Shown here: in pieces, positions 37,064 to 61,259 of the stretch
How the letters are laid out: each line of letters begins with the position of its first letter
Numbering within the stretch: the stretch's first letter is position 1
Assembly (NCBI GenBank): GCA_030431755.1
Contig: JAUIIK010000001.1
Span: 42,184-106,183, forward strand
DNA from: Chloroflexia bacterium
GTDB taxonomy: Bacteria > Chloroflexota > Chloroflexia > Thermomicrobiales > CFX8
Reading direction: 5' to 3'
DNA: 64,000 nt
Translations under genes and position numbers: made by a program
Notes under the pieces: model-generated
What the model saw: only the letters and a program-made list of their open reading frames with translations
Databases searched by the model: none
Told to the model about the DNA's origin: nothing

Positions 37064-39968
<2,905 letters not shown>

Positions 39969-39969
<1 letters not shown>

Positions 39970-40961: not shown

Positions 40962-40990
40962 AACTTACGATTAAGAAGATACAGTGTCAA
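40962..40990 (-). promoter_or_regulatory. Sigma-70-like promoter candidate for the glycan operon: TTGACA-N17-TAAGTT
   Basis: The minus strand reads cccTTGACActgtatcttcttaatcgTAAGTTa. It lies in the lower-GC spacer about 130 nt upstream of the first operon start. Confidence 0.45.
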
Positions 40991-41100
40991 GGGATAGTAG
41001 CTAGCGTCAGGTTATATTTGCGAACAGCTAACGACAGGCTAATACGCGCGTAATCCGTGGCGGCGCCGCACATGAACGGGGACTGTGCCAGGCATACGAA

Positions 41101-41130
41101 AGCGACCCGCGACGTTACGCGCGGGTCGCT
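41101..41130 (-). terminator. Intrinsic terminator-like hairpin downstream of the beta-helix gene
   Basis: AGCGACCCGCG / CGCGGGTCGCT 11-bp stem, followed on the minus strand by TTCGTAT. Lies 39 nt after the stop at 41169. Confidence 0.5.
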
Positions 41131-41168
41131 GTGTCTCGGAACGAAGTAGAGCGGAAGCGGCTCTGCCG

Positions 41169-43244
41169 CTAGTCGAAGACCACGATGGCGTCGAGGTCGA
41201 CGCGCTTCGACGAAGAGTTCTGATTCTTCGCGCCGAGCACCTTGATCTCCAGCGTGTGCGTGAAGTTGGGATCCAGGCCATCGGCGGTGAAGGCCACACG
41301 CCGGGACATCGCGCCGCCATTGACATAAAGGTCAACGGTCTGCATCTTTACGCCGTCGAGCCAGACTTCCGCTTTGCCGCGGTTGTTGCCTCGCACGGAG
41401 ATCCAGCTCACGCTGGTTCCGGTGAAGGTGAAGGTCACATTTGATCCCTTGGCGCTGGCGTGCTTGAGCGCGCCACCATATGCGCCGCTCATGGATGCCG
41501 TCGTCCAGCTACCGCTGTAGGGGATCGAGCTCGAGCTTTCCTCGTAGAGTCTGATCGAGAATGTCTCGCCGGTAGACCAATCGCTCACCGCGCCGAGATT
41601 GTCGGTTGCCCGGACACGCAGCTGGTAGTCATGCCAGGGCGGCAGGTTCAAGGCGGTCGATTGATTCTCGGCGCCGCTGGCGATCGTCTTGACCGTCACG
41701 AACGCGCCGCCGTCGGTGCTCAGCTGGAGTTCGTGAAGGCTGACGCCATCGCTGTCGCTGCCCGACCAGGCAACCGGCACCGGCACAGCGCTCGGCGTCA
41801 GCCGGAAGACCGGCGGAGCATAGGTTGGCGCGCTAACCGTGGGCGGCTCGTTGATCGTCGCGCCCGGTCCGTCGCGCTCGTCGACGCCGATCTCCATCGC
41901 CGCGGCGCCGGGGGCGGCGTCGCCGTCGAGGTCCTCGGTGTAACCCTCGCCGGCAGGCTCGTTCGTGCCCCGGTCGATGACCGGGCTATTGCCGCTGACG
42001 TGGAAGTCTTTGCCGGCCGGATTGACGAAGTGCGGGTCGGCGATGATCGAGGTTGGACTGATCTCCCAGTTCTGAATGAAGTTGTTCGGAAGTGGAAGCC
42101 CGCCGGGATGCCAGTAGAGATTGTGTGTCTCATTGATCGTGTTGCCGGAGTTGACGTAGATCGCCTTGTCCGACGCGACGATGATGTTGTTCTTCATCTC
42201 CAACACCTGGTTGGAGCAGGACATGCAGACGACGCCCTGGCCATCGTTGCCGATGTTGTAGACGACGTTGTTGTAGAGCGATGTGCGCCAGACCGGGCCG
42301 TGCGGTTCGCCCGCGCCCCGCGTTACGACGAAGCGGCTACGCTCCTCGTTGTTCGAGTGGACGTTGTAGGCAAACGTATTGTCCGCCGACGTGATCGACG
42401 AGCTGCTACCCATCTCAACGAAGATGCGATCATACGAAACATTGTGATGCACGTTCGAGTTCGTCGCATTGAAGAGCTCGATCGAGATGCTGGATGTGTA
42501 CTGGCCAATGCCGCCATCCGGGGCTTTCGTGCAGAGGCTGTTGTTGTTGGCGAATGTGTTCCAGGCGACCTCGTTGGCATTGCCATGGAGATTCACCCCC
42601 AGGCCGCCGAGCGGGTCCCCGGGCTCGTTGCGCCAGAGGCCGACATTATCGCGAATCTCATTGCGAAAGATGACATTGTGGTGCGAGTTGTCGGACATGC
42701 CGAAACCCATGCTGTGATTCGAGGTCTTCGAGTGGCGAACCGTGTTGTGGTGTGCCGCGCCATCGAACTGGAAGCCAATCTTCCAGCCCACCGGCTGATT
42801 CAGGCAGCTGCCATCCAGCTCGTAGGCCGTCATGTCATGGCGCGTCTGCAGGTACTGGACGATGATGTAGGAGCCGGAGATCTTGACGTTGGCGTTCGGC
42901 GCGTTCTTGATCATCGGGCGGTCGCCCGAGCCATAGGCGCTGATCATGATCGGGTTGGCCGACGTTCCATGCCAGCTCGCCTTGAGCGGACCGTCCCAGC
43001 TGCAACCGCGTTTGAGCAGCAGCTGGTCGCCGGCTGAGAGGGTAGCGCTGTTGACGGGGTCGAGCGACTTCCAGGCGTTGCTCGATGAGGTTCCGCTGGC
43101 GCCGTCATTGCCGGCCACACAGTCAACATAATACTTGGTGCCGCCTGCGGCCAGAGCCTGTTGGGTGAGTCCTGGCGTGATGGCGGCGAAGCCGGATACG
43201 ACTACAGCGCACGCCAGGAGAAGACAAGTGAACTTGCGGGGCAC
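41169..43244 (-). CDS. Secreted right-handed beta-helix protein with Ig-like and C-terminal carbohydrate-binding-like domains (glycan lyase/hydrolase or surface-protein candidate)
   Basis: GTG 43244 is preceded by GGGAG and gives the signal peptide VPRKFTCLLLACAVVVSGFAAITPGLTQQALA. GTKYYVD..GNDGASGTS..WKSL entry motif, then N/H-rich beta-helix repeats. C-terminal beta-sandwich (YSGSWTTASMSGAYGGALKHA..VDLDAIVVFD). Confidence 0.75.
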   Translation of the reverse strand: MPRKFTCLLLACAVVVSGFAAITPGLTQQALAAGGTKYYVDCVAGNDGASGTSSSNAWKSLDPVNSATLSAGDQLLLKRGCSWDGPLKASWHGTSANPIMISAYGSGDRPMIKNAPNANVKISGSYIIVQYLQTRHDMTAYELDGSCLNQPVGWKIGFQFDGAAHHNTVRHSKTSNHSMGFGMSDNSHHNVIFRNEIRDNVGLWRNEPGDPLGGLGVNLHGNANEVAWNTFANNNSLCTKAPDGGIGQYTSSISIELFNATNSNVHHNVSYDRIFVEMGSSSSITSADNTFAYNVHSNNEERSRFVVTRGAGEPHGPVWRTSLYNNVVYNIGNDGQGVVCMSCSNQVLEMKNNIIVASDKAIYVNSGNTINETHNLYWHPGGLPLPNNFIQNWEISPTSIIADPHFVNPAGKDFHVSGNSPVIDRGTNEPAGEGYTEDLDGDAAPGAAAMEIGVDERDGPGATINEPPTVSAPTYAPPVFRLTPSAVPVPVAWSGSDSDGVSLHELQLSTDGGAFVTVKTIASGAENQSTALNLPPWHDYQLRVRATDNLGAVSDWSTGETFSIRLYEESSSSIPYSGSWTTASMSGAYGGALKHASAKGSNVTFTFTGTSVSWISVRGNNRGKAEVWLDGVKMQTVDLYVNGGAMSRRVAFTADGLDPNFTHTLEIKVLGAKNQNSSSKRVDLDAIVVFD

Positions 43245-43782
43245 GATGGATACTCCCTTGCAGTTTCGCGATCCCCATACATCACCATGCTCCCATCGGG
43301 GAGCTTGCGGTGGCAGGCCCCGATAGGTTGTCTCAGGCCCCGACAAGCGGCCTAGGACCACCCAGACCAACGGTCTAGGAGGGCTCGCAAACTACGGGGT
43401 CGACGCTGCTTCGGGATCGGGAATAGGCCGGCAGCCTGTGCCGCGGAGTGGCTCTCGTGCGGGCATGGAAAGAGCCGCGTACACGGTCTCTGTTGACAAC
43501 CGAGGCGGTGCTAGTTTGCCCGGGAATATCTCATATACACGCCGAAAAGCAGCATCAACGCCCCAACGACTCCGACTGCGAAACCTGGCATCCGGCATCC
43601 CGCTACGCCGCCGCCGATGCGGAGCGCAACGAACCGTCAAACCCGGTCAGCACGTGATTACCGCCTACCGACCGTCGAGCGGTAGGCTAGCCACTACCAT
43701 ACACTAACCCAATGCGATAAAACTAATCATTAGTATGTTAATAATTACTAGCAACCAGCGCTCGTATCCATTTCATAGCCAC

Positions 43783-48223: not shown

Positions 48224-49169
48224 TCATAGAGCTTGTCCATCATCGAAGGCGTAGCCACAGTGCTGAAACCAACCGCGCGCATCTTGGACGGTGATCCGAT
48301 CAAGCCCTTGCGCGATCGCTTCCCAGAGCCCCTCGACCGCGCGTTGGTTGGCTCGTCGAAGATGGGCTTTGAGTTTGGAAAAGAGCTGCTCGATGGGGTT
48401 GAAGTCCGGCGAGTAGGGCGGTAAAGGGAGCACCCGACATTCGGCGGCCTCGATGAGCACTACGGCATCGCTACTCTTATGCACACTGAGGTTATCCCAG
48501 ATGACAATCTGCCCCGCACGCAATTGCGGGACGAGGAATTGGGCGATGAACTGATCGAAGACGGGCCGGTCCATGGCCCATTCAATGACCACCGCCGTCT
48601 CGACACCACCAAGGGTCATGGCCGCCATCACTGTCGTGTTCTTGCCCCAGTTGCGCGGCACCTGGCCGATGCAGCGCGCTCCGCGTGGAGCCCGGCCGTA
48701 GCGTGGCGTCAACGTGATGTTGGCGCCACTCTCATCGACAAAGATCAACTGCTCTGCGGCAACACCCTCGATCTCAGCCCACCAGGCAGTGCGTGCTTCT
48801 GGATCCTGTTCGCTGGCGATCAGCCGCTTTTTTTCGCGTCAATTCCAGCCGCTGCAGCGTGCGGCACATGGTCGCGGCACTGACCCTGACCCCGCTGACT
48901 CCCATCCACTGATGGCAGTAGTCGCTCAGGGTGGCATCGGCGCTGGCACGCACCAGGGCTGTCAGCGCCGCATGCTGGTCGGCTGGGATCAGCGGCGGGC
49001 GTCCCGGGCTGGTGCGCGCCACAACCGAGCCTTCCGCACGCCACTGCTGGCGATAGCGCCGCACAGTGCGGGCCGAGACGGCGAACCGCCGCGCGACCTC
49101 TGCCACCGTCTGCCCCAACTCCAGAGCGGCGATGATCCGTTCACGGAGATCCGGACTGTAGGCACGCAT
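48224..49169 (-). CDS. IS630 family transposase; the HTH part (49169-48774) and DDE part (to 48224) lie in different frames that meet at an A7 run
   Basis: N-terminal part MRAYSPDLRERIIAALELGQTVAEVARRF.. . After CGAAAAAAAG the +1 frame continues ..KKRLIASEQDPEARTAWWAEIEGVAAEQLIFVDESGANITLTPRYGRAPRG..DNLSVHK..LPPYSPDFNPIE (DDE_3 signature). Confidence 0.8.
48828..48834 (-). other. A7 homopolymer (T7 on the plus strand) at the transposase frame junction; candidate +1 recoding or transcriptional-slippage site, or an inactivating indel
   Basis: Read directly: CGA AAA AAA GCG in the orfA frame versus GAA AAA AAG CGG in the orfB frame. Confidence 0.6.
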
Positions 49170-49315
49170 CACCCCTCCTGCCTTTCACCCTGCGTGCCAC
49201 AGTGTCACCGAGGAACAGCCTATTCGCAATAGGGTCTAGTGTTCCGGGGCACGCAGTTTTTCTGCAGTTGGTCCTCGAACTGAGCTAACACAATGTGCGA
49301 TATTGCGTCACCTGT

Positions 49316-50638
49316 TCAGCCTCGGCATGGTAGAGTGAAACTTGCAGTTGTCCCGGTTCCCGGCTCGCTGACGACCCCGATCGTGCCGCCGTGCGCCTCA
49401 GTGATGGCACGCGCAATGGCGAGGCCAAGTCCAGTACCGCCAGTACGCCGCGATCTAGATCGGTCAACTCGATAGAACCGGTCGAATATCCGATGCAAGT
49501 GCTCCGGTGGAATGCCGCTACCGGTATCGGATACCGACACGACGGCTGTCTCACCACCGTTTTCGACGAGTACGTCGACGCTCCCGCCCGCTGGCGTATG
49601 TTTTCGAGCGTTGTCGAGCAGAATGCGAACGACCTGGGCGATTCTTCCTTGGTCGATAGATGCTGTGGCTGCTGAGCGCGCCGCGAACGACAGGCGGATA
49701 CCGGCTGCTTCGAAGATTGGCCGCATCTCGTCGACGGAAGCCGCGACCGTTTCCGACAGATCGCTAGGTTGCGTCTGCAGGTCAAGCGCCTGGCTGTCGA
49801 GCCGCGCGATGAGCAGGAGATCACCGATGAGCCGGTCGATGTGGTCGATCTCCCGCAAGATACTCTTGATCTCTGGCGTGATCGGCTGCGCTTCTTCAGG
49901 CGCTTCCATGAGTGCCATTTCCGCGTTCGCGCGAATGAGCGTCATCGGAGTCCGCAGCTCGTGCGATGCGTCGGCGACGAACTGGCGTTGCCGGTCGAAC
50001 GCAGAATTGATCGGCTGCATTGCGCGACGTGAGAGATAAAAGCCGGCCGGCGCGGCAATCAGGCCGCCGAGTGCAACACCGAGCAGTATCACGCGCCGGA
50101 GCTCTGCCAGTCGCCCGTCCAGCTCGTCAAGACTCCGAATACCTTGGACGGCGCCGACAACTTCGTCGCCACTGTAGACCGGTACCGTAAGTACGCGAAC
50201 TCGATACCCGCCATTGAGTGTCACCGAGCGGACATCGGAGTCGCCAGTCAGCGCGGCCGGTATGCCACCAGCCACCGGCACGTCGTCGAGGTGAATCTCG
50301 CGAGGGTTACCGACGATCCGGCCATCTGAGCCGATGACCATTAGGACGGTATCGCCGGAGCCGATGATTTGCCACTCGCGCTCGTAATCTTCCTCGACAT
50401 TTGGGGGCCGTTCGTCGGTGACTCGTGATGTGTTGGCGAAGAGATCCTCACCTCGAACGAACGCCGCCGGGTCGTCAGGCAGTTCGGCGGACTCGACTCG
50501 CTCGTTGAGCGCCTTGTCCAGCTCCTGGAAGTGGCTGTGTCGCAGCGCGATGTACACGACAGCGCCAACGATCGAAATCAGAAGTATCACAGTTGCCGCG
50601 TTGAGAATGGCGAGCTGGCGTCCGACGCGTGTGAACAT
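49316..50638 (-). CDS. Sensor histidine kinase (two TM segments, periplasmic loop, HAMP, HisKA, HATPase_c)
   Basis: H-box ASHELRTPMT, N-box LLDNARKHT, G1 DTGSGIPPE, G2 GGTGLGLAIARAI. 440 aa. Confidence 0.9.
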   Translation of the reverse strand: MFTRVGRQLAILNAATVILLISIVGAVVYIALRHSHFQELDKALNERVESAELPDDPAAFVRGEDLFANTSRVTDERPPNVEEDYEREWQIIGSGDTVLMVIGSDGRIVGNPREIHLDDVPVAGGIPAALTGDSDVRSVTLNGGYRVRVLTVPVYSGDEVVGAVQGIRSLDELDGRLAELRRVILLGVALGGLIAAPAGFYLSRRAMQPINSAFDRQRQFVADASHELRTPMTLIRANAEMALMEAPEEAQPITPEIKSILREIDHIDRLIGDLLLIARLDSQALDLQTQPSDLSETVAASVDEMRPIFEAAGIRLSFAARSAATASIDQGRIAQVVRILLDNARKHTPAGGSVDVLVENGGETAVVSVSDTGSGIPPEHLHRIFDRFYRVDRSRSRRTGGTGLGLAIARAITEAHGGTIGVVSEPGTGTTASFTLPCRG

Positions 50639-50647
50639 ATGCTGCCC

Positions 50648-51322
50648 TCAATCCGCGCGCAGGCGATATCCGACGCCGCGCACGGTTTCAATCGGAGAGC
50701 CCGGTCCATCGACTTGCAGCTTGCGGCGCAAGTAGTGGATGTAGAGATCGACGACGTTGCCTTCTGGATCGGCGTCGTAGCCCCAGACATGTTCCAGGAT
50801 CTGGTCGCGGGTGAGCGCCTGGTCGGCGTTTCGCAACAAGAACTCGAGCAACGAGAATTCTGTTGGTGTCAACTCCACGGCCCTGCCGCCAACAGAGACC
50901 GAGCGTCTGTGAATATGCATCGCGACGCTCCCGACAGCCAGGACATCCGGCAAGTACCGCTGGCTTGCGCGGCGTGTCAACGCGTGGACGCGCGCAATGA
51001 GCTCCTCGAACGCGAATGGTTTGCCAAGGTAGTCATCGGCGCCGTTTTCCAGCCCCTCGACGCGACGGTCGAGGTCGCGGAGCGCACTGAGAATAAGCAC
51101 CGGCGTATTGACGCCGGCAAGCCGCAACTCATAGCAGATCGATAGACCGTCCATGCCGGGAAGCATGCGATCGAGGATGATCCCGTCGAATGTTCCGGTG
51201 AGCGCTTTCTCAAGCCCTTTATCGCCTGTATGAGCCAGTTCAATGTCAATGCGCTCGCGCTCGAGGGCGCGTCGGATGAGACGTGCCAGCTCGATTTCAT
51301 CTTCGACGACGAGGATACGCAT
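50648..51322 (-). CDS. OmpR/PhoB family response regulator
   Basis: MRILVVEDE.., phospho-acceptor region IILDRMLPGMDG, winged-helix LTPTEFSLLEFLL..VWGY. Confidence 0.93.
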   Translation of the reverse strand: MRILVVEDEIELARLIRRALERERIDIELAHTGDKGLEKALTGTFDGIILDRMLPGMDGLSICYELRLAGVNTPVLILSALRDLDRRVEGLENGADDYLGKPFAFEELIARVHALTRRASQRYLPDVLAVGSVAMHIHRRSVSVGGRAVELTPTEFSLLEFLLRNADQALTRDQILEHVWGYDADPEGNVVDLYIHYLRRKLQVDGPGSPIETVRGVGYRLRAD

Positions 51323-51364
51323 CAGACAAACCCGCCGTCTGACGCCGACGCCATGCTAGCTGGC

Positions 51365-52768
51365 TCAGTCATCATCGTCATCATCGGAGCCTGAGTCACC
51401 GTCATCATCGTCTTCATCATCGCCGCCTGACCCAGGCCCGGAATTGTCGTCGTCCCCACTACCGGAACCGCTCCCTGAGCTGTCATCGTCACTGTCATTG
51501 TCGCCGGATCCGGGTCCCGAGTTGTCATCATCATCGTCGTCATCGTTGCCTGATCCTGGCCCGGAATCATCATCGTCATCTCCGCCGGAACCAGGGCCCG
51601 AGCTGTCATCTTCGTCGCCTGGTCCTTCGCCCGCATCGTTTACACCAACGTCACCGTCGTCGTCCCCGCCGGAGCCGGGTCCGGAGTTGTCATTTTCCTC
51701 ATCGTCATCGTCGTTGGATCCGGGACCTGAGTTGTTCCCATCGGAATTGTCATCGTCGCCCTCGCCAGAGCCAGGTCCGGAGCTATCATCCTCGTCGCCA
51801 TTGCCATCGCCATCGTCGCCTGGTCCCGGCCCGGAGCTGTCGCCTTCATGGTCGCCGTTCTCATTGGAGCCGAGCTCTGCGTCATCCCCGTCGCTATCGT
51901 CATCGCGGCCTGACCCGGGCCCGGAACTGTCGTCATCTCCCCCGCTGGAACCGCTCCCGGAATCGTCGTCCTCGTCGTTGTCATCGTCAGTGGATCCAGG
52001 GCCAGAGTTATCTCTCTCCTCGGAGCCGGGACCGGAATCATCGTGGTCACCGTCGCTAACCCGGGCGCCACTGTCGTCGTCGCCGGATCCCGAGATGTCC
52101 TCACGCTCGTCATCGACGTCATCTGAACCCGGACCGGAGTTGTGCTCTTCCGGCTCATCATTGCTGCTCCCGTTTCCTGCCGGGCCCGGATCTTCCTCAC
52201 GGTCGTCGTCATCGGCGCCTGACCCTGGTCCAAAGCTGTCGTCATCTTGGGCCACCGTTCCGGGTGTGCCGTCGTCGCCGTCACCCGGTCCCGAGCCGCT
52301 TGCGGGTTCCTGCTCGGTTTCGCCGCTGGGCTCAGCATTGTCATCGCGATCGTCTTCGTCACGCGCCAATCCGAACGAGCTCGCGGGGGATGGGTTCGGA
52401 GGTTGGGCGCCACGCGAATCGGCTGGAAGCTGAAGGTCACCACTGTCGTCACCCGGCGGCGCGGTCGCATGGATGTTTTCTCCGTCGAGTCGCTTCGTTG
52501 CCAGGCCAGTTGACGCGCCGGAGCGTGCGATTGTGTCAATTTTCGCAGCTGCCGCGGTTGGGGAAGCAAGCGCCACGTCTCCATTGGCCGCCTCATCCGC
52601 GTCGTCACCGGCGTCATCTACAAGTTCGCCGGCATTGAGGCGCGCGAGCGGATTGAACCGGTCCAGATCGAGCACCGGATAGATCATGAGGCTGATCACC
52701 AATAGGACGGCAGCCATCCATGATGTCGATAGTGCCCAGACCGGCAGTCTTTGCCGCACTCGAACCAT
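51365..52768 (-). CDS. Membrane-anchored, extremely acidic low-complexity protein with about a dozen (D/E/N)n-S-G-P-G-S repeats
   Basis: N-terminal hydrophobic anchor (LPVWALSTSWMAAVLLVISLMIYPVL). GAGGGA Shine-Dalgarno before the ATG. The C-terminal ~300 aa are Asp-rich blocks separated by SGPGS/SGSGS. Lies 42 nt upstream of the RR-HK pair on the same strand. Confidence 0.7.
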   Translation of the reverse strand: MVRVRQRLPVWALSTSWMAAVLLVISLMIYPVLDLDRFNPLARLNAGELVDDAGDDADEAANGDVALASPTAAAAKIDTIARSGASTGLATKRLDGENIHATAPPGDDSGDLQLPADSRGAQPPNPSPASSFGLARDEDDRDDNAEPSGETEQEPASGSGPGDGDDGTPGTVAQDDDSFGPGSGADDDDREEDPGPAGNGSSNDEPEEHNSGPGSDDVDDEREDISGSGDDDSGARVSDGDHDDSGPGSEERDNSGPGSTDDDNDEDDDSGSGSSGGDDDSSGPGSGRDDDSDGDDAELGSNENGDHEGDSSGPGPGDDGDGNGDEDDSSGPGSGEGDDDNSDGNNSGPGSNDDDDEENDNSGPGSGGDDDGDVGVNDAGEGPGDEDDSSGPGSGGDDDDDSGPGSGNDDDDDDDNSGPGSGDNDSDDDSSGSGSGSGDDDNSGPGSGGDDEDDDDGDSGSDDDDDD

Positions 52769-52841
52769 GCGTATCCCTCGCTTCAGCCACCTGCGGTCAG
52801 TTACGTCCGATCCATCCTACGTGCGACAGATTGGAGTTACA

Positions 52842-53927
52842 TTAGAATCCACTTCCGGTTCCTGAAAGCGGCCCGGCAAGCCGTTCTTCGACAAGTTCCA
52901 GGAGCATTCCGGTCGCGCTCTCACGGCCTGCAATCTGACTGCTGAGTGAGACGTGACGCGCAAGCGTTAGCGTCTTCGTGATCTCCACATCAGCGGCGGA
53001 AATCCTCCCGGACTGTACGTCGATTGACCGCTCAATAAAAGTCTGTTCGGTTCTCTCAAGGTACGGAGTTCCAGGTGACGCGCGTACCCGCAGCTCACTG
53101 AGGTGCCCAGCGAAGTTGCCGACGTCAATCGCCGCGGGTCCACGAGAGTACAGGTCGACGTCGAGGATCCAGACCCTGCTCCCGTCGATGAGCACATTGT
53201 CCTGGTAGAAATCACGGTGGAGACCGACCGTCGGAGCATCGCTCAAGCCGGATGCTACCTGGCGGCATTGCTCGAACACACTTCCCAGTCGTTCGCTGAG
53301 CTCCGGTCGCACGGTCGACAAGCTGCGGAAGCGCTCCTCCAGGATTGCGAGTTCGTGTGGAACTGCGTGCCGTCGTGTGCAGCCGGCGGCGCACGCGTGA
53401 AAGACGGCCAGCGCCTCGGCTACCCGTCGCGCCACGATGTCACCGTTCGTGCCGGTCAGGGCGATCTCCGCAGGTACACCTGGGACTCGATGTTGGAGCC
53501 ACATGTGAAAGGCAGGGATATAGCCGGCAACGGGAGGGACCGAGACGCCATGACGGCTACTTGGCCCAAGCCCGAGGCTGGCGAGCCGGTACTGGATGCC
53601 GTAGGCATGGCTGTCCAAGCCCTTTGCGCGGACTTTGCCGATGAGAGCGATTGAGCGCGAGCCGCGCCATGGCGCGCTGATCTGCAAGCCGTACTCGATG
53701 AGGCAGCGCCGGCCCGGTTTGTGTCGAATGACCCGAATCGACGAGAGCCCGCAATGGTTTGCACAGCGTCCGAGGGGGCCGGTCGGCTGCGTTAGCGCCG
53801 CCAATGCTGTACGAGGGTCGAGGGCCGGCTTGAGGAACTGAAATGCTGGATCGTTGCGTACTCCGGCCGAGTCTTCAACCGTCGCGGCCGGCACTAGCGT
53901 TTCCTGTTCGGAGATGTCACGAGACAA
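52842..53927 (-). CDS. Phosphotransferase (APH / kinase-like fold) family protein
   Basis: Catalytic loop LHRDFYQDNVLIDGSRVWILDVDL..AIDVGNFAGHL. 361 aa. Confidence 0.7.
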   Translation of the reverse strand: MSRDISEQETLVPAATVEDSAGVRNDPAFQFLKPALDPRTALAALTQPTGPLGRCANHCGLSSIRVIRHKPGRRCLIEYGLQISAPWRGSRSIALIGKVRAKGLDSHAYGIQYRLASLGLGPSSRHGVSVPPVAGYIPAFHMWLQHRVPGVPAEIALTGTNGDIVARRVAEALAVFHACAAGCTRRHAVPHELAILEERFRSLSTVRPELSERLGSVFEQCRQVASGLSDAPTVGLHRDFYQDNVLIDGSRVWILDVDLYSRGPAAIDVGNFAGHLSELRVRASPGTPYLERTEQTFIERSIDVQSGRISAADVEITKTLTLARHVSLSSQIAGRESATGMLLELVEERLAGPLSGTGSGF

Positions 53928-55207
53928 CGGCGATCCATGAGCCTGGATACGCGTTGCAGACCCTGATCGATCCGATGATGCCAGTCCGGGTCACGCCGCC
54001 GGAAGTGATGCACCAGCAAGCCGAACAGACCGGCAGCACGATAGATCTGGATCTCGCGACGATCCACCACTCCTCCGGCCGCGACGTACGCAGTCACCAG
54101 TTGCTCCTCGGCATCATCTGCAAAGTCGGGAGACCACCCGAGCCAGTAGCTGTTCCGGTCAAGATGCGCAAGGAATAGGCCAAGATCTTCGGCTGGATCT
54201 CCTCGACCGGCTTCATCAAGATCGATCAGCCCGATGCCCCGGCCACGCAATAGCACCTGTTTTGGGTGGAGATCACCGTGTACGAGTGCCGTTCCAACCG
54301 GGAGCGCCGGCAGCGTGGCTAGCAGCCGTGACGTTACCTGCTCCACCTGTTGCGTCAGAGAGGGCGCAAGCCAGCTGATCATGTTCGCGTTTGCGATGGT
54401 CTTGTTGGCGAGGTCGGACGGAAGCCGCTGCGGCATGCCTGATGTGTCCTGCGCGTGGAATATGGCAAGGCCATGTGCCAGGGCGTCAATCCACTGCTCA
54501 TGCTCCGGGGCGGCCGGCAACACGGATGCGAGCGATACGCCGTTCAGCCAGTCCAGAGCCAGCGCACTCCGGCGCCGCGTCTTGCCCAGGTGTTGAGGCA
54601 GTGTCAGCTCGGACTCTGAGGCCGTTGGCGTGCGTTTCGATCGACCGATCTCGTAGTCGGTACTCCGGTAGATACGCACCACGACCCGGCGCCCAGCGCT
54701 ATTTGAGACCAGCCCGACGAACCTGCGCTCCGGCTTGTAGTTCAACTCCTCTACGCTCCACTGACCCTGTGACGCATCCGAGCCGAGCAAGCGGCGCATG
54801 ATCTGGCTTCGCCGGTGAGGAAGCAGCAATTGAGGAAGCCCTTTGAGCTTGTTATCCAGCGGCGTGAAGACGAGTTCCGTCGAGTGGTCCCGCAGTAACA
54901 GACGACCGGGATACTCGCGATGCCCACTGTCGGAGGGATGGCGTGGCATCCCGAGCTTGGCTGCAGCATCGTCACGATAGGCCTTTGCGTAGCCTGTTAG
55001 CTCCTGGCCGCCGGACTGTATCCGGAACCTGCAGAGGCAGTTCATGCCTGGCTTGTAGCGTGTGTAGTCGACGCGCAGTTCGTCCACTCCGAGATCCGGG
55101 ACTGCCCGGCGCACACGGTCCGCCAGTTCGGCGCTGTCGAGCACAAGCGCGAGTCCACGCAGCTGGGAGTCGCGCGCGCAGAGGATCGCCTCAGTCTGAG
55201 GCAACAT
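53894..55207 (-). CDS. Phosphotransferase (APH / kinase-like fold) family protein
   Basis: Catalytic loop LVHGDLHPKQVLLRGRGIGLIDLDEAGRGDPAEDLG. ATG 55207 is preceded by GGAGGAA, so it is preferred over 55273. Confidence 0.7.
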   Translation of the reverse strand: MLPQTEAILCARDSQLRGLALVLDSAELADRVRRAVPDLGVDELRVDYTRYKPGMNCLCRFRIQSGGQELTGYAKAYRDDAAAKLGMPRHPSDSGHREYPGRLLLRDHSTELVFTPLDNKLKGLPQLLLPHRRSQIMRRLLGSDASQGQWSVEELNYKPERRFVGLVSNSAGRRVVVRIYRSTDYEIGRSKRTPTASESELTLPQHLGKTRRRSALALDWLNGVSLASVLPAAPEHEQWIDALAHGLAIFHAQDTSGMPQRLPSDLANKTIANANMISWLAPSLTQQVEQVTSRLLATLPALPVGTALVHGDLHPKQVLLRGRGIGLIDLDEAGRGDPAEDLGLFLAHLDRNSYWLGWSPDFADDAEEQLVTAYVAAGGVVDRREIQIYRAAGLFGLLVHHFRRRDPDWHHRIDQGLQRVSRLMDRRCLVTSPNRKR

Positions 55208-57008
55208 ACTCGTTCCTCCGGTCATGGGTGGTGGTGTGCACCGCGGATAAGCGTGCGTAGCGACCGCCGGCATCGATCAAGCTTGCGTGTGTGCCGCGTT
55301 CTACGATCTCACCGTTCTCGATGTACAGAATGTAGTCAGCGCGGGATGCGAAGGCGAGGTCGTGTGTTACAAGCACCGTCGTGGTGTGCTCGGAGAGACG
55401 TTTCAGCGCGTTGATCACTGATTGCTCATTTGCCTCGTCGAGACCGGTCGTTGGCTCGTCCAAGACGAGAATCGGCGCTTGCCGGACGGCGGCGCGCGCA
55501 ATCGACAGGCGCTGCCGCTGGCCGCCGGACAAGGTCGTACCGCGTTCGCCGAGTACCGTCTCGTAACCATGTGGGAGATCGCCGATGAAGAGATGGGCGT
55601 TGGCCAGGCGCGCCGCCGCGACAATGTCCGCTGCTGTCGAGTCGGGACGCCCATACGCAATGTTGTCGCGCACCGACGCTGCGAACAGCAGGGTCTCCTG
55701 CATAACAACGCTCATCTGCCGGCGGAGGGACTCGACCTTGTAGCTACGAATGTCTCGCCCGTCGATCTCGATCCCGCCGTCGGTCGGATCATACAGGCGC
55801 AGCAGAAGACTGGCGATGGTCGATTTCCCGTGGCCCGATGGACCGATCAGCGCGACCGTCTGACCAGGCTGGATCGTGAACGAGATGTTGCGCAGGACCG
55901 GATGTTGAGGATCGTACCCAAATGACACATTTCGGAACGCAATCTCGCCCAGAAATGGCGGCGCGTCGATTGCCCCCGCAGTGTCCTTGATGTCTGGTGT
56001 GCGCTCGAAGACGTCAAGCACGCGTTCGCCGGCCGCCGACGCCTTGGCCAATCGCCCGGTGTACTTGGCGTAGCTCTGAATCGGCCGGTAGGAAGACTTG
56101 AGGTAGGAGAGAAAGACCAGCAGTTCGCCGGCTGTCAGCGCGCCTTGCAGTACCAGGCGGACCCCGTACCAGAGCACGAGAGCGGAACCGCAGGCTGTCA
56201 GCACGTCAACAGACCGTTCAAGGCGTGCCTCCAGCCGCTTCGCTCGCACCGACTCCGCCTGACTCCGGTTGTTCTGCCGCGCGAACTGATTGCCAAACGT
56301 GTCTTCGAGCGACAGTGCCTGGACAGTCCGAATCGCGCTGATTGCTTCCGCCGCGGTTGCGGCGACTGCGCCTTCACGTTGTCGCTGCTTGCGCGACACC
56401 TGGCTAATCCGCTTGCTGAGCCGGATCGAGCGAATCAGGAACAGCGGGAGCACAGACGCCGCGAGGAGTGCGAGTTGCCAGTTAAGCCAGAAGGTGACCG
56501 AGAGCATGCCAACGAGGATGAGCGCATTTGCGATCAGCGGCAGGACCGCCGTGACCGTCACATCCTTGAGCATTCCGATGTCACCAATAACCCGAATGGT
56601 GAGATCGCCGGTGCGTGTACTGTCGTGATAGGAGAGCGAGAGGCGTTGCATGTGATGGTAGAGGTCCGCGCGAACAGCAGTGAGTACGCGATTCCCAACG
56701 AGCGCCATCCCAATCGTGCTCGCGTACGATGTAACTGCCCGTAGTAAGGCGACGACCACGACCGCGCCAGCCATCAGTGTGAGCCAGACAAGTTGGTTGT
56801 CGACTTCCTCTCCGGCCGGTGGGCTGATCAGGCGGTCGAAGACGAACTTGAGTGGCCACGGCTCGAGCAATCGAAATCCAACCTGCGCCAGCAAGGCAAC
56901 GAAGGAGCCGCCGAGGAGCATCTTGTGCTGTCGGATGTAAGGCCAGAACGCTCTGACGAACCGGAACAGGCCAGGTAGCGCGGCAGCGATGGACGATGTC
57001 CGCGCCAT
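55191..57008 (-). CDS. ABC exporter, fused permease/ATPase (MsbA/type IV exporter-like)
   Basis: Six-TM N-domain. Walker A GPSGHGKST, signature LSGGQRQRLSIARA, Walker B ILVLDEPT. ATG 57008 lies 1 nt after the upstream stop. Confidence 0.9.
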   Translation of the reverse strand: MARTSSIAAALPGLFRFVRAFWPYIRQHKMLLGGSFVALLAQVGFRLLEPWPLKFVFDRLISPPAGEEVDNQLVWLTLMAGAVVVVALLRAVTSYASTIGMALVGNRVLTAVRADLYHHMQRLSLSYHDSTRTGDLTIRVIGDIGMLKDVTVTAVLPLIANALILVGMLSVTFWLNWQLALLAASVLPLFLIRSIRLSKRISQVSRKQRQREGAVAATAAEAISAIRTVQALSLEDTFGNQFARQNNRSQAESVRAKRLEARLERSVDVLTACGSALVLWYGVRLVLQGALTAGELLVFLSYLKSSYRPIQSYAKYTGRLAKASAAGERVLDVFERTPDIKDTAGAIDAPPFLGEIAFRNVSFGYDPQHPVLRNISFTIQPGQTVALIGPSGHGKSTIASLLLRLYDPTDGGIEIDGRDIRSYKVESLRRQMSVVMQETLLFAASVRDNIAYGRPDSTAADIVAAARLANAHLFIGDLPHGYETVLGERGTTLSGGQRQRLSIARAAVRQAPILVLDEPTTGLDEANEQSVINALKRLSEHTTTVLVTHDLAFASRADYILYIENGEIVERGTHASLIDAGGRYARLSAVHTTTHDRRNEYVASD

Positions 57009-57009
57009 C

Positions 57010-58188
57010 TCAAACTGACACTTCTCGCGGCTGGGCAGCTTCGAATGCCGCGGCAACGACCCGGTCAACGATCGCGTCCCACGTGTATTGCCGGACGGCC
57101 GCGGCGCGCGCGCTCGTGCCAAGGCGGGCGCGAAGCCCCGAGTCACCTGCCAGCCTCACTAATGTGAGCGCCAGGTTGTCGGCATCGCCCGGGCGGCTGA
57201 GCAAGCCTCGTTCGCCGTCCTGGATGATTTCCGGGATCTGGCCGGTTGCGCTCGCGACGACCGGCAAGCCCGCGGCCATGTATTCGAAGATCTTGAGCGG
57301 CGAAAAGTAGAAACCTGGGATCGTGTCGTACGGGGCGACGCCGATGTCCATCGAAGTCAACATCCCCGGCATGCGCTCCGGGTCAACGGGGCCCACGAGC
57401 CGCACGACCTGATCGAGCTCAGCAGTCTGGACGGTTGATTCAATCTCTTGCCGGAGCGGACCGTCCCCAACAATCAGCAGCCGCAGTGCGGGACACTTCC
57501 GACTTGCGATCTTGAACCCATCGATGAGCGTGAGCAAGCCGTGCCAGCGTTTCATCGAGCCGGCAAAACCTACGGTGATCGTCCCTGGCTGCCGCGCAAT
57601 CATCGGAGGTATGTCGGGACTGAAGCGGGTAGGGTCTACGCCGTTTGGCTCAATATGTATGTGTTCCGCCGGCGCGTCCCGCTGTCTGACATAGTCAGCT
57701 ACTGCGTCCGAGACGACGACAATATGACTCGATGCCACGAAGGCCCGTCGGGCAACACCTTCGGCCAGCTCGCGGTCGGCCAGTTCGCGGTAGGTTGCCT
57801 GCTCTTCGATTAGTGGCGCGTTGACCTCCAGTACGCGAGGGATACCCGCCACGCGGCCGAACTCCATTGCCGCGGCGCTCCACAGTGAGTGGCGCTCGTA
57901 GATCAGGTCGAATGGCGTTCCCTTCATCAGCGCTCCCCGTATCGCGTCATTGAGCAGACTTATCGTGCGCTCCCGCGCGATCGGGGAGGACGAAGAGAGC
58001 TCGGGGAGTTGCGTGACGGAGACCGCATCAAGTCCACGTCGTACCGGACCGCCCAGAGAGGCGGCGATTAGCTCGACCTGCCAGCCACGTTTGACGAAGG
58101 TCCTTAGCACTTCCTGAACGTGGATCGAGCAGCCCTTGTGGCCGAACACCGGCACTCCAGCGTCGGCGCAGACGTATGCGATTTTCAC
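57010..58188 (-). CDS. Glycosyltransferase family 4 (GT-B)
   Basis: VKIAYVCADAGVPVFGHKGCSIHVQEV.. N-terminus and YFSPLKIFEYMAAGLPVVASATGQIPEII motif. GTG 58188 forms a GTGA overlap with the upstream stop. The Arg/Pro-rich 116-aa extension to 58536 is rejected. Confidence 0.85.
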   Translation of the reverse strand: MKIAYVCADAGVPVFGHKGCSIHVQEVLRTFVKRGWQVELIAASLGGPVRRGLDAVSVTQLPELSSSSPIARERTISLLNDAIRGALMKGTPFDLIYERHSLWSAAAMEFGRVAGIPRVLEVNAPLIEEQATYRELADRELAEGVARRAFVASSHIVVVSDAVADYVRQRDAPAEHIHIEPNGVDPTRFSPDIPPMIARQPGTITVGFAGSMKRWHGLLTLIDGFKIASRKCPALRLLIVGDGPLRQEIESTVQTAELDQVVRLVGPVDPERMPGMLTSMDIGVAPYDTIPGFYFSPLKIFEYMAAGLPVVASATGQIPEIIQDGERGLLSRPGDADNLALTLVRLAGDSGLRARLGTSARAAAVRQYTWDAIVDRVVAAAFEAAQPREVSV

Positions 58189-59420
58189 GACACCGCTCCC
58201 GCCAGCGCGCATTCGCGGTGCCAGGCATTCACGGCCCTGACAGTGAAGAGCTTCCGAACCCGAGCGGCGTTCTGGAGAATGTTGAAATCGGATTCGACGC
58301 GCATCCTGGCATTCTGCGCGAGCCGTTGCCGGAGGGCGGGATCTTCGAGGAGGCGCTTGAGTGCCGCCGCCAGCTCGAATGGATCTTCGGGCGGGACGAG
58401 TAGGCCGCCTTCGCCATGCCGGATCATCTCCGGGATCCCGGTGAGCTGTGTGGAGACGCACGCCGTTCCAAGTGCCATCGCTTCCAGCAGTACCGTGGGC
58501 AGGCCGTCCCTGTTGCCGTCGCGGGCCAGGCGGCACGGAGCGGCAAACAGGCTCGCGCGCGCGACACGGTGCTTGACCTCGGCCTGCGGCAACGGGCCGG
58601 CGAGCGTAACCTTGCTTGAAAGCCCAGCGCGCTCAATGTGCTCAGCAAGGGCAGGTCGAAGCTCGCCGTCGCCGACGATGTCGCAGGTGAACTCGACACC
58701 ATCGCGAGCCAGCAGGTCACAGGCGTCAATAAGTATGTCGAATCCCTTTTTCTCGACCAGCCTGCCGACAGCCACGAGCTTTGCAGTCTCTCTGTGGTCC
58801 GCGCTGAAGTGGAATGCGTCGAGATCGAGGCCGTTGTAGATCCGGCGCACGCTTCGAGCATCGGGGCCGAATTGCTGCCTGAGGTAGTCCGCATTGAAAT
58901 CGCTGACGGTGACTACGGCCGTCGCGTCAGCCATCTTGCGGCGGAGATCCTCCGGTTCGACTGTCTCGTGGTAGATGTCTTTGGCATGGGCTGTGAAGCT
59001 ATAAGGCACTCCGGACATCATTGCCGCAAGGCGGGTGACCGTCGTCGCGACGCTCGCAAAATGCGCGTGGAGATGGGTGATACCGCGTTCGCGCACCTCC
59101 GCAGCGATGATCGCGGCCTGGTAGACATCCAGTGCCCGCACACCCTGTGCCGCCGCGAATGCTTCAGAGTACCGGCGTGGGCTGTCACCAGCTGCCTGAG
59201 CAAGAGCAGCCCAGAGCGCATCGCCTCCAATCTTGCCTGCCGGGACGTAGGTCACACCGGCCTTGACTCGGGCGAGAACATCCTGAAAATGCGTGTCGGC
59301 GGGCGGCCGCAATGAGAAGATGTCGATGTCGAGCCCAGATGCCTCATGCGCCAGAATCTCGCTGACGACAAAGGTCTCGGAGTAGCGCGGGTACCGCTTG
59401 ACAACATAGCCAACTCGCAT
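58185..59420 (-). CDS. Glycosyltransferase family 4 (WcaL-like)
   Basis: MRVGYVVKRYPRYSETFVVSEILAHEASG.. N-terminus typical of WcaL-type GT4 enzymes. C-terminal DGLPTVLLEAMALGTACVSTQLTGIPEMI. Confidence 0.85.
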   Translation of the reverse strand: MRVGYVVKRYPRYSETFVVSEILAHEASGLDIDIFSLRPPADTHFQDVLARVKAGVTYVPAGKIGGDALWAALAQAAGDSPRRYSEAFAAAQGVRALDVYQAAIIAAEVRERGITHLHAHFASVATTVTRLAAMMSGVPYSFTAHAKDIYHETVEPEDLRRKMADATAVVTVSDFNADYLRQQFGPDARSVRRIYNGLDLDAFHFSADHRETAKLVAVGRLVEKKGFDILIDACDLLARDGVEFTCDIVGDGELRPALAEHIERAGLSSKVTLAGPLPQAEVKHRVARASLFAAPCRLARDGNRDGLPTVLLEAMALGTACVSTQLTGIPEMIRHGEGGLLVPPEDPFELAAALKRLLEDPALRQRLAQNARMRVESDFNILQNAARVRKLFTVRAVNAWHRECALAGAVS

Positions 59421-59421
59421 G

Positions 59422-60714
59422 TCAGTCTCCCGATATTCGTGTATCAGCGTGGATGGCGTGTGGGGCATTCGAAATCAGATCGTTGAGAAAGACCGGGATC
59501 TTCGTAAGCCCTGCCAAGTCGAGGGCTTCAAACGCGCGGGGACGGTCGGCCGATGTGTCTGCCAGCCAGGCTTCAAGCGCGTCCGGCGAGAGGTCGGCCG
59601 GGTGAAGCATGTCAACCAGCCCTCGTTCGCTCAGTCGAGTGGCACGCAGTAATTGCTCTCGACGCGGCGTGGTTCGCGGAACGATCAAGGCGGATGCGCC
59701 ATAGGACAGCACCTCGCCTACTGCGTTGTAGCCGCCCATCGAGATGACCCGGTCGGCGGCTTCGATCAGTGACGCCGGCTCGGACACGAAGCCGAGGACA
59801 TCGAGGTCATTTCGTCCGCTTGCGAGTCTGGCGATGTCGTTTGCAGTTTCAGCCGGCATGTACGGTCCAGTCAGCAGCACTCCGGCTGCATCGGACGGGA
59901 AGCGCGTTGCAGCGAACGCTGTGGCGAGCGTGCCGCCATCCTGGCCGCCTCCGACAAGACAGAGAAGCAGGCGTTGGCCTGATGATCGAATTTTCTCGAC
60001 CAGACTGGCGACGCGTTCGTCGGGAACCCGGGGACGTGATTGCTGATCCAGGTACCCGGTGAACCGGACAATGCTTCGCACGTTTGCGAGGAACTTGTAC
60101 TCCCGCGTTGCGTCGTAGACAGCCCTGTCGCCGTAGATCCAGATGGCGTCGTAGACCGATTGGACCAACCTGTCCGCTCCCGTTTTCCTCCACTCTGCCT
60201 CAATGACGGCTGGAGCGTCCAGGATGTCCCGCAAGCCAAGAACGATCTTTGTCACCCCTTCCTGGCGAAGACGGTTGAGTGCTGGTAGCAGTTCACCGCC
60301 CGCGCCGGCCGGTACGTTGTCGACGATCAGCACGTCGGGCCGAAAGCTCTCCAGTGCGGAACTGATGATCGCTGAACGCAGCGCGATCAACGAGTCGAAT
60401 GAGCAGGTCAGCCGCCGCGCGGTGTAGGACCCTGCGCCGTTCTTGTAGAGCGAGGGCAGGGTGACGAGGTCTGTCCCAGCCGGCAGCTTGAATGAGCGAG
60501 TCTCGAGCGCGCCCGAGAGGAGCAGAATCGAACATCCGTGAACGTGGTTGGAAATTGCCTGCGCGATAAGTAAGTTGCGGCGAGTGTGCCCGAGTCCCTG
60601 GGAGTCGTGCGCGTACATCGCAATTCGTGGGGCTCTGCCGCCATGCGCAACGTTCCACGCTCCGGGGCCGAACCTCGTCGTACCGAACATCTCCGTGACG
60701 TTGAATGTGCTCAT
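59422..60714 (-). CDS. GT-B glycosyltransferase, MurG/GT28-like (COG4671-type, recalled from memory)
   Basis: RIAMYAHDSQGLGHTRRNLLIAQAI N-terminal motif and C-terminal ..RVISMGGYNAVGEVLSYGASALIVPR. 430 aa. Start codon uncertain because no SD is seen. Confidence 0.65.
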   Translation of the reverse strand: MSTFNVTEMFGTTRFGPGAWNVAHGGRAPRIAMYAHDSQGLGHTRRNLLIAQAISNHVHGCSILLLSGALETRSFKLPAGTDLVTLPSLYKNGAGSYTARRLTCSFDSLIALRSAIISSALESFRPDVLIVDNVPAGAGGELLPALNRLRQEGVTKIVLGLRDILDAPAVIEAEWRKTGADRLVQSVYDAIWIYGDRAVYDATREYKFLANVRSIVRFTGYLDQQSRPRVPDERVASLVEKIRSSGQRLLLCLVGGGQDGGTLATAFAATRFPSDAAGVLLTGPYMPAETANDIARLASGRNDLDVLGFVSEPASLIEAADRVISMGGYNAVGEVLSYGASALIVPRTTPRREQLLRATRLSERGLVDMLHPADLSPDALEAWLADTSADRPRAFEALDLAGLTKIPVFLNDLISNAPHAIHADTRISGD

Positions 60715-60992: not shown

Positions 60993-61259
60993 ATGCGTAA
61001 GAGCTGCTACAGCGAGGAGCAGATCATCGATATCCTGCGGGAGCATGAAGCGGGCGCCAGCGTCACCGACCTGAGTCGCCGGCACGGGGTTAGTCAGTTG
61101 ACGATCTACCGCTGGAAACAGAAGTATGACGGGTTGGAACTCTCCGAGCTCAAGCGGCTGAAAGCGCTTGAGGCGGAGAATGCCCGGCTGAAGAAGCTCG
61201 TGGCAGACCAGGCCTTTGACAACCAGATGCTCAAGGAGTTGCTCGGAAAAAAGTGGTGA
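60993..61259 (+). CDS. IS3 family transposase OrfA (HTH)
   Basis: MRKSCYSEEQIIDILREHEAGASVTDLSRRHGVSQLTIYRWKQKY..LKALEAENARLKKLVADQ is a canonical IS3-family OrfA with a leucine zipper. Confidence 0.85.
   Translation: MRKSCYSEEQIIDILREHEAGASVTDLSRRHGVSQLTIYRWKQKYDGLELSELKRLKALEAENARLKKLVADQAFDNQMLKELLGKKW

Follow-up and report, generated by a model that had tools for sequence, protein, structure and literature searches.

A conserved and mobile gene cassette with paired APH-fold kinases as a candidate pathway for the synthesis and export of an anionic glycoconjugate

Nine co-directional genes

We analysed a stretch of 64,000 nucleotides from a Chloroflexia bacterium (contig JAUIIK010000001.1, positions 42,184 to 106,183), hereafter the window, in which nine minus-strand genes with overlaps or gaps of 73 nt or less encode three glycosyltransferases, an ATP-binding cassette (ABC) exporter, two kinases of the APH fold (K1 and K2), a polyacidic protein and a two-component system. 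The original prediction, made from the DNA letters, had listed these nine genes, and all of them are present where it had placed them. We describe the six upstream genes as a conserved, mobile, horizontally spread and uncharacterised cassette, putatively for glycoconjugate synthesis and export, with a distinctive dual-kinase module. The nine genes, followed by the insertion sequence (IS) remnants on either side, are:

59422-60714, minus strand: GTA, a GT-B glycosyltransferase of 430 amino acids with a Glyco_tran_28_C domain, identical to database protein P0014
58185-59468, minus strand: GT4B, a family 4 (GT4) glycosyltransferase of 427 amino acids, Glycos_transf_1 and Glyco_transf_4
57010-58188, minus strand: GT4C, a second GT4 glycosyltransferase, 392 amino acids, Pfam GT4 domains, GTG start
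55191-57008, minus strand: ABC exporter of the ABCB/type IV kind, 605 amino acids, transmembrane and nucleotide-binding domains fused (ABC_membrane and ABC_tran)
53894-55207, minus strand: K1, APH-fold kinase of 437 amino acids, Pfam APH, identical to P0001
52842-53894, minus strand: K2, APH-fold kinase of 350 amino acids, Pfam APH, identical to P0140
51365-52768, minus strand: polyacidic membrane-anchored protein of 467 amino acids, one N-terminal transmembrane helix and an Asp-rich tail
50648-51322, minus strand: response regulator (RR) of the OmpR/PhoB family, 224 amino acids, Response_reg and Trans_reg_C
49316-50638, minus strand: sensor histidine kinase (HK), 440 amino acids, HisKA and HATPase_c
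48224-49172, minus strand: downstream flank, IS630-family transposase remnant in two open reading frames (ORFs), Pfam DDE_3 and HTH_Tnp_IS630
60993-61259, plus strand: upstream flank, IS3-family OrfA, Pfam HTH_Tnp_1 at 76 bits

The starts of GTA, K1 (55207) and K2 (53894) agree exactly with those of the database proteins; the longest ORF of K2 has a TTG start at 53927 and would give 361 amino acids, while the database call starts at 53894. GTA and GT4B overlap by 47 nt, which becomes a 1-nt gap if GT4B begins at Met17, and the stop of GT4B and the start of GT4C share the GTGA overlap that had been predicted and that can be read directly from the DNA. Further downstream, GT4C and the exporter gene are separated by 1 nt, the exporter gene and K1 overlap by 17 nt, and K1 and K2 by 1 nt, followed by gaps of 73 nt between K2 and the acidic protein, 42 nt between the acidic protein and RR, and 9 nt between RR and HK.

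The nine proteins of the window were the queries for the identity figures given below and for domain scans against Pfam and NCBIfam; in NCBIfam, all nine stay below the curated cutoff of every model. A sequence scan found transmembrane-like segments in the exporter, HK and the acidic protein and none in the three glycosyltransferases, K1 or K2, so that these five enzymes are predicted to be cytoplasmic. No gene for a substrate-binding protein lies within the nine-gene block. A role in a defence system, prompted by faint GT4-conflict and TCAD9 matches, was discarded because a PADLOC anti-phage scan returned no glycosyltransferase or kinase match and only generic matches to the nucleotide-binding domain of the ABC protein.

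Conservation, spread and mobility

The cassette is present in at least 193 species genomes: a species-level scan (one genome per species, by alignment to the K1 family) gave 193 loci, of which 80 were examined. The nine genes had been predicted to act as one functional module, and this is borne out by synteny, conserved in the examined loci and on plasmids, and by the natural gene fusions described below. All nine genes are kept in the same order in two relatives, a metagenomic one (L001, K1 52% identical) and a Thermomicrobiales metagenome-assembled genome (MAG; L009), where the acidic protein is shorter, which argues that the nine-gene arrangement is not due to chance. The flanks differ among these three copies, and transposase genes adjoin two of the three. 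In L001, an IS256-type transposase gene and a third APH gene are found directly downstream of HK. The closest named relatives are from Thermomicrobiales.

Across phyla it is a six-gene core that is kept. GTA-GT4B-GT4C-ABC-K1-K2 occur in this order in most of the 80 loci, which span about ten phyla, and a second fixed order, GTA-K1-GT4B-GT4C-K2 with the ABC gene nearby, is found in Woeseia, Lysobacterales and some Rhodothermales. The hosts belong to Chloroflexota, Rubrobacter and other Actinobacteriota, Cyanobacteria, Gamma-, Beta-, Alpha- and Deltaproteobacteria, Planctomycetota, Verrucomicrobiota, Acidobacteriota, Rhodothermales, Calditrichaceae, Gemmatimonadales and Entotheonella. Identities to the window proteins are nearly independent of phylum, at 45-62% for GT4B, the most conserved cassette enzyme, 51-59% for the exporter (the two close relatives excluded) and 27-42% for the kinases. 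From the names of the records we had the impression, without statistics, that many hosts live in habitats that are dry, saline or alkaline, or belong to taxa that tolerate desiccation, such as Rubrobacter, soil Chloroflexia and Thermomicrobiales, Gloeocapsopsis, Nostoc commune, Thioalkalicoccus, Ectothiorhodospiraceae and Rhodothermales.

A plasmid search found the complete cassette on one Paracoccus plasmid, and it is also present on IncF virulence plasmids of Escherichia coli, in 18 of 5426 complete genomes, always plasmid-borne and at least 99% identical. The E. coli copy (p1RM9088, NZ_CP042296.1 32389-42567; L091/L096) lies between IS fragments, as the window copy is bracketed by IS630 and IS3 remnants, and its island also holds genes for an alginate-export barrel and a nucleotide-sugar dehydrogenase. 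The plasmid-borne copies, together with the IS remnants on both sides in the window and in E. coli, indicate that the cassette is mobile. The p1RM9088 island further adjoins K88-like fae fimbrial genes and an S6 autotransporter protease gene. A published account of the cryptic clade I plasmids does not mention the cassette, the PGAP names of its proteins are generic, those of E. coli included, and we found no description of the cassette in the open-access papers searched.

Gene fusions and accessory genes

Next we looked at how the cassette genes are joined. K1 and K2 are one polypeptide in 27 of the 50 loci that have both, and the databases hold fusions of the kinds ABC-K1-K2 (1404 and 1379 amino acids), ABC-K2 (954 amino acids), GT4-K1-K2 (1197 amino acids) and sulfotransferase-K1-K2 (1128 amino acids). 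These proteins (P0276, P0266 and P0284 for the exporter with K1-K2 or K2, P0210 for GT4-K1-K2, and P0144) are predicted genes and possibly artefacts of assembly or gene calling. As natural fusions, they suggest that glycosyl transfer, sulfation, phosphorylation and export form one assembly line at the cytoplasmic face of the membrane, and that phosphorylation may license export.

We then clustered all ORFs of the examined loci and scanned representatives with Pfam. A Sulfotransfer_3 enzyme is encoded inside the cassette in 17 loci, about a fifth. In a Rubrobacter MAG (L004, 6631-7482 and 4624-5631), a sulfotransferase gene is inserted between K1 and K2, and the protein after K2 is faintly similar to ATP-grasp and inositol-trisphosphate 5/6-kinase proteins. 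In 30 loci an outer-membrane barrel gene directly follows K2, of the Alginate_exp and DUF5666 kind in 19, of the OprB and SLH kind in 6 cyanobacteria (plus Stanieria) and of an unnamed kind in 5; none of the examined Chloroflexota or Actinobacteriota loci has a barrel after K2. The presence of three unrelated barrel families at the same site suggests that some passage through the outer membrane is generally required for a solute of carbohydrate type. The original prediction had seen the pathway as notable for a lineage commonly taken to lack classical lipopolysaccharide (LPS). This peculiarity did not survive the wider sampling, in which the cassette is equally present in LPS-bearing diderms, together with alginate-export or OprB channels. 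As to the exported product, these barrels speak for a hydrophilic one no less than for a membrane lipid.

Among the neighbours that recur across the 80 loci we found no initiating phosphoglycosyltransferase, polymerase, ligase, oligosaccharyltransferase, acyltransferase or nucleotidyltransferase, and no lipid-synthesis or polyprenyl-phosphate glycosyltransferase genes. Likewise, GT9/GT30 heptosyl or Kdo transferases and lipid A genes are neither among the nine genes nor recurrent in the 80 loci. Because the cassette has no nucleotidyltransferase, K1 and K2 are unlikely to feed sugar-1-phosphate to donor synthesis, and a role as anomeric salvage kinases that supply donors was dropped on that ground. 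Since no ligase, polymerase or oligosaccharyltransferase is conserved alongside, the exported molecule would be the end product.

The kinases and a possible saccharide metabolite

The two kinase signatures that had been predicted are present, HGDLHPKQ...IDLD in K1 and HRDFYQDN...LDVD in K2. HGD..Q and D.D are invariant among K1 relatives, as are RHK.GRR, GK.RAKG.D, HRDF and D.DL among K2 relatives, and this retention of catalytic residues across the family suggests that K1 and K2 are both probably active. Both match Pfam APH, K1 at 64.0 bits and K2 at about 39.6 bits (cutoff 23.2). Even at E≤10, the Pfam search returned for K1 and K2 APH and a faint TCAD9, and no match to Kdo/WaaP (PF06293), fructosamine kinase or Mak_N_cap. 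No APH subfamily in NCBIfam is reached at cutoff, with LxmK (31 bits, cutoff 315) and APH(3') (29 bits, cutoff 205) as the best rows, and the models for Mph, viomycin/capreomycin phosphotransferase, thiamine kinase, homoserine kinase II and maltokinase are also below cutoff.

The AF2 model of K1 (pLDDT 86.8) has an extra N-terminal beta-sheet unit, and its fold neighbours, at TM-scores of 0.4-0.67, are PsiK, macrolide and corramycin phosphotransferases, methylthioribose kinase, LxmK and choline kinases. A profile search of the PDB with K1 gave capreomycin, corramycin and viomycin phosphotransferases, APH(3'), maltokinase and YihE. The original prediction had held that a classification of the kinases as antibiotic or small-molecule enzymes would speak against it, and by that yardstick the placement of K1, nearest to just such kinases, does count against it. 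Two other roles were rejected. For a maltokinase or GlgE-type function of K1, the match is confined to the catalytic loop, there is no cap-domain match, and maltokinase is not among the top folds; a spore-coat pair of a CotS/CotSA-like kinase and a GT4 enzyme has no support in NCBIfam or Pfam, and the cassette occurs in non-sporulating diderms.

A HMMER search with K2 returned 635 cluster representatives at E≤1e-30, the majority of them K1-K2 fusions of about 800 amino acids. The cassette of Stanieria PCC 7437 has K2 without K1, which marks K2 as the core kinase of the cassette, with K1 as a paralogue that was added to it.

These neighbours raise the possibility that the product is a saccharide secondary metabolite, an antibiotic or a signal, whose phosphorylation serves as self-protection or makes a pro-drug before export, with the phosphate removed outside; streptomycin-6-phosphate is a precedent for such a phosphorylated, self-protected form. 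The capreomycin, corramycin, viomycin and macrolide phosphotransferases around K1 are consistent with it, as are the macrolide, calicheamicin and vancomycin glycosyltransferases nearest in fold to GTA, an exporter of the ABCB drug-exporter type, the mobility and patchy distribution of the cassette, and a secreted calcineurin-like phosphoesterase lipoprotein encoded after K2 in three Chloroflexia loci (L019, L029 and L033). That phosphoesterase is, however, found in just 3 of the 80 loci, the similarities are distant (no more than 21% identity, with NCBIfam scores for antibiotic kinases far under cutoff), no scaffold genes are conserved (polyketide synthase, non-ribosomal peptide synthetase, cyclitol or aminosugar enzymes), and conservation of the core enzymes over about ten phyla is unusual for antibiotic clusters. 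We therefore regard a secondary metabolite as improbable.

The glycosyltransferases, the exporter and a possible glycolipid

GTA matches Glyco_tran_28_C at 35.8 bits (Pfam cutoff 22) and TIGR01133 murG at 15.9 bits (cutoff 250); its N-terminal YSHDxxGxGHxRRN motif is invariant, and its family, with more than 3000 members, is named just "glycosyltransferase". In a search with its AF2 model (pLDDT 85.8), the closest folds were GT1 enzymes, among them macrolide, enediyne, glycopeptide and other natural-product glycosyltransferases, and plant and sterol UDP-glycosyltransferases, with MurG at rank 44. GTA is a soluble GT-B enzyme that probably makes the first, priming sugar transfer.

GT4B and GT4C both score above cutoff for the Glyco_transf_4 N-terminal and Glycos_transf_1 C-terminal domains and are generic GT4 enzymes, with neighbours that include PglA, BshA, PimA, PimB', MshA and a sucrose-phosphate synthase; in the PDB, GT4C lies near PimA, MshA, Tll1590 and PimB'. 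The predicted "WcaL-like" nature of GT4B stands as a resemblance, although its best NCBIfam rows, EpsE at 202.7 bits (cutoff 400) and WcaL at 125.6 (cutoff 537.6), are both below cutoff.

The same is true of the label "MsbA-type" for the exporter, whose leading NCBIfam rows are MsbA_rel at 455.7 bits (cutoff 780), MsbA TIGR02203 at 418.3 (cutoff 602) and NF008381 at 365.7 (cutoff 867). In the PDB the exporter is nearer to Sav1866 (346 bits) than to MsbA (305 bits), a comparison that goes against the predicted affiliation. With ABC_membrane at 160.8 bits, ABC_tran at 121.9 bits and six transmembrane-like regions, it is, judged by sequence, a generic ABCB-type half-transporter of the type IV fold, and charged residues in its transmembrane domain are conserved. 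The three Chloroflexia MAGs with the phosphoesterase gene encode an exporter extended past the nucleotide-binding domain (L019 6835-9945, L029 6865-9987, L033 6847-9969) by an additional transmembrane helix and a WD40 beta-propeller of about 300 amino acids, predicted to be extracellular.

Another alternative is that of the original prediction: a glycolipid or lipid-anchored oligosaccharide would be built on the inner face of the membrane, phosphorylated in the manner of WaaP and flipped into the envelope by an MsbA-like exporter. Several features fit such a molecule. The fold of GTA is nearest to GT1 enzymes with lipophilic acceptors and also resembles that of MurG, GT4C resembles PimA and PimB', which act on phosphatidylinositol, and the exporter has MsbA_rel and MsbA as its top rows; K1 and K2 are both basic (isoelectric points 9.4 and 8.6), the kinase-exporter fusions would put phosphorylation at the membrane, and a terminal glycolipid needs no ligase. 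Yet K1 and K2 fall outside the Kdo/WaaP family, both MsbA models stay below cutoff with Sav1866 ahead of MsbA, and no acyltransferase, lipid-synthesis or polyprenyl-phosphate glycosyltransferase gene lies in or next to the cassette. Moreover, in diderms the cassette is partnered by a water-filled channel for carbohydrates, of the alginate-export or OprB kind, and not by a lipid transport machine, and in E. coli the cassette coexists with normal LPS. We consider the glycolipid possible, though rather unlikely.

For the analogy with the LPS core and WaaP, read as homology, the outcome is negative, as K1 and K2 match only APH and the exporter is below the MsbA cutoff. The resemblances of the enzymes in sequence and fold do not single out one substrate, but they remove a specific homology with LPS-core assembly.

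The acidic protein and the two-component system

Downstream of K2, the window and its two close relatives carry additions that are particular to the Thermomicrobiales group. Neither Pfam nor NCBIfam gave a match for the acidic protein. This protein has an isoelectric point of 4.05, a net charge of about -129, 25% Asp, a transmembrane helix at residues 8-38 and 13 SGPG motifs, and its tail is read as lying outside the cell because positive residues precede the helix. Orthologues of 404 amino acids in L001 and 211 in L009 share its position and the anchor motif YP[VI][LF]DLD[RQ][FY]NPL. The tails differ, with NSGPGSG/Asp repeats in L001 and DDWDDD repeats in L009, where the acidic part has no serine, and from this we conclude that it is charge that is conserved and not a modifiable serine. 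The protein is absent from the cassette in all other lineages among the examined loci. In an index of 5.8 billion proteins, its first 108 residues gave no match, itself included, while K1 and GTA are present there; its gene may have been left uncalled in the source annotation.

One might ask whether the acidic protein is itself the substrate, its SGPGS/Asp repeats being glycosylated and phosphorylated in the cytoplasm before export in the manner of SdgA/SdgB. The 13 SGPG motifs stand within Asp runs, SdgA and SdgB appear as weak NCBIfam rows for both GT4 enzymes, and the protein keeps its position after K2 in the three relatives. These rows, however, are at 47 bits for SdgA and 31 for SdgB against cutoffs of 800, an ABCB half-transporter offers no route for a protein of 467 amino acids with an N-terminal anchor, the Asp/Trp-rich tail of L009 conserves charge alone, and all other cassette loci lack the protein although their enzymes are equally conserved. 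The serine-free tail of L009 and this absence led us to reject the protein as a glyco- or phospho-serine substrate, a role that we hold to be extremely improbable.

The original prediction had also suggested possible control by the linked two-component system, of which the linkage itself is supported. A histidine kinase and a regulator adjoin the cassette in 14 loci from several phyla, but the acidic protein and the sensor domain of HK are additions of the Thermomicrobiales group. RR is 69-70% identical in L001 and L009, and HK, in which transmembrane-like segments 5-36 and 177-203 flank an outside loop of about 140 amino acids, is conserved from end to end in L001 (74%) and L009 (66%) alone. 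Both proteins have the domains of the OmpR/PhoB type, with the named equivalogs below cutoff (RppA 193 against 250, RppB 242 against 400). The coupling of the cassette to a two-component system is thus recurrent, and this particular sensor is lineage-specific. As a guess, the poly-Asp protein and the OmpR-type system could tie the expression of an anionic product to an envelope or cation signal.

A candidate pathway

Taken together, these observations lead us to propose, as on balance probable, that the six upstream genes are a self-contained mobile cassette for making, phosphorylating and exporting a small anionic glycoconjugate. Of the original prediction, the exported phosphorylated glycoconjugate persists, as the most economical reading of the locus. 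GTA, being GT1/MurG-like, would put a first sugar on an acceptor from general metabolism, and GT4B and GT4C would each add a further sugar, two more in all, from common nucleotide sugars. The K1/K2 pair would phosphorylate the product with ATP, and in about a fifth of the loci a sulfotransferase dependent on 3'-phosphoadenosine 5'-phosphosulfate (PAPS) would also sulfate it. The ABCB half-transporter would export the finished molecule, with the tailoring enzymes acting at its cytoplasmic face, and in diderms a dedicated outer-membrane barrel would carry the product across the outer membrane.

Whether such a product is hydrophilic, and released or wall-associated, is close to evenly balanced in our view, though we hold it somewhat likelier than a membrane glycolipid. 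It is favoured by the alginate-export and OprB barrels, by the lack of lipid genes and of a ligase, and by the dehydrogenase of the E. coli island, which would form uronic acids. More tentatively, the cassette may represent an undescribed class of exported phospho- and sometimes sulfo-glycoconjugates whose tailoring is physically coupled to the exporter, used in Thermomicrobiales for an inducible anionic surface layer with the poly-Asp protein and the sensor.

Several points weigh against this proposal. Every enzymatic step is assigned from family membership, which leaves product and acceptor putative, and the TM-scores of GTA and K1 to known structures reach only 0.4-0.65. Two features favour a glycolipid, namely that the enzymes closest in fold to GTA use lipophilic aglycones and that the substrates of ABCB exporters are as a rule amphipathic. 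The outer-membrane barrels could serve uptake and not export, the kinases could be regulatory, and the window copy has no barrel, with the poly-Asp protein and the two-component system in that place. As for co-transcription with the two-component system, promoter and terminator scans of the nine-gene block were at chance level; and because the cassette-linked histidine kinases of other phyla share just the transmitter core with HK, the regulatory link may be coincidental or lineage-specific.

If the proposal is correct, hundreds of genomes from deserts, soils, sediments and cyanobacterial mats, as well as E. coli virulence plasmids, share an unnamed export pathway for anionic sugars, K1 and K2 define a new branch of the APH fold that is directed at carbohydrates, and the kinase-exporter fusions are a natural model of tailoring coupled to export. 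As the cassette sits on an E. coli plasmid, standard genetic methods and mass spectrometry should suffice to identify its product. In annotation, the names "aminoglycoside phosphotransferase" and "MsbA-like" are misleading here, and the LPS analogy should not be propagated.

A second glycan cluster in the window

A separate, large glycan cluster on the minus strand (25894-43370) resembles a pathway for a sulfated polysaccharide. It encodes four GT2 and two GT4 enzymes, two sulfotransferases, a fused ATP-sulfurylase/adenosine 5'-phosphosulfate kinase for PAPS synthesis, a beta-helix protein resembling chondroitinase B, and an APH-like protein of 545 amino acids that is just distantly related to K2.

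Comparison with known systems

The LPS inner core of Gammaproteobacteria is assembled with the GT4 enzyme WaaG, the kinases WaaP, WaaY and WapP, and MsbA. The cassette shares with it cytoplasmic GT-B glycosyltransferases, several sugar kinases of a protein-kinase-like fold that would add charge, and an ABCB exporter. It differs in that its kinases belong to Pfam APH, in having no GT9/GT30 or lipid A genes and an exporter below the MsbA cutoff, and in its outer-membrane partner, an alginate-export or OprB barrel and not Lpt; furthermore, it is found in monoderms and, in E. coli, beside ordinary LPS.

ABC exporters of the NdvA/ChvA type, of the MsbA-like class, export cyclic beta-glucan or periplasmic glucan, and the glycan ends up with anionic groups. 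The cassette exporter has the same fused architecture and would likewise export a hydrophilic glycan made in the cytoplasm, but it scores 338 bits against a cutoff of 733 (NF010178, TIGR01192). Cyclic beta-glucan systems use large GT84/GT2 polymerases and add the anionic substituents outside the cytoplasm, whereas the cassette has GT1-like and GT4 enzymes, and its kinases and sulfotransferase are predicted to be cytoplasmic and sometimes fused to the exporter.

Antibiotic tailoring sets supply the closest folds of GTA and K1, namely OleI/OleD (PDB 2iya, 4m60), the macrolide 2'-phosphotransferase 5igh and the corramycin phosphotransferase 8agy, and there too a small molecule is modified in the cytoplasm and then exported. 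Identities are 12-21%, however, with TM-scores of 0.4-0.65 and NCBIfam scores of 17 against 260 bits for MGT and 23 against 550 for Mph(C), and the cassette has no scaffold biosynthesis genes and is conserved across phyla, not strain-specific. The Campylobacter Pgl system also combines GT4 enzymes with an ABCB-type exporter, PglK, and PglA, PglJ and PglH are among the better matches of GT4B. Unlike Pgl, the cassette has no initiating phosphoglycosyltransferase or oligosaccharyltransferase and its exporter scores 146 bits for PglK against a cutoff of 1000, while Pgl has no kinases.

Lastly, a sister cluster is found on more than 200 rhizobial plasmids, among them the Rhizobium/Sinorhizobium megaplasmids pSymB of S. 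meliloti 1021 (837144-840796; L094/L095) and p42e of R. etli (L093), and we found no characterisation of it in the literature searched. Its flanks include an adenylate/guanylate cyclase, a polysaccharide lyase, an ABC importer and a cNMP-binding/Crp protein. This cluster has a second GTA-like enzyme in place of GT4C and a distant exporter (904 amino acids, 22-24% identity), and it has no APH kinases; like the cassette, it is plasmid-borne and runs from a GTA homologue (35-37% identity) through a GT4B homologue (35%) to an ABC exporter.

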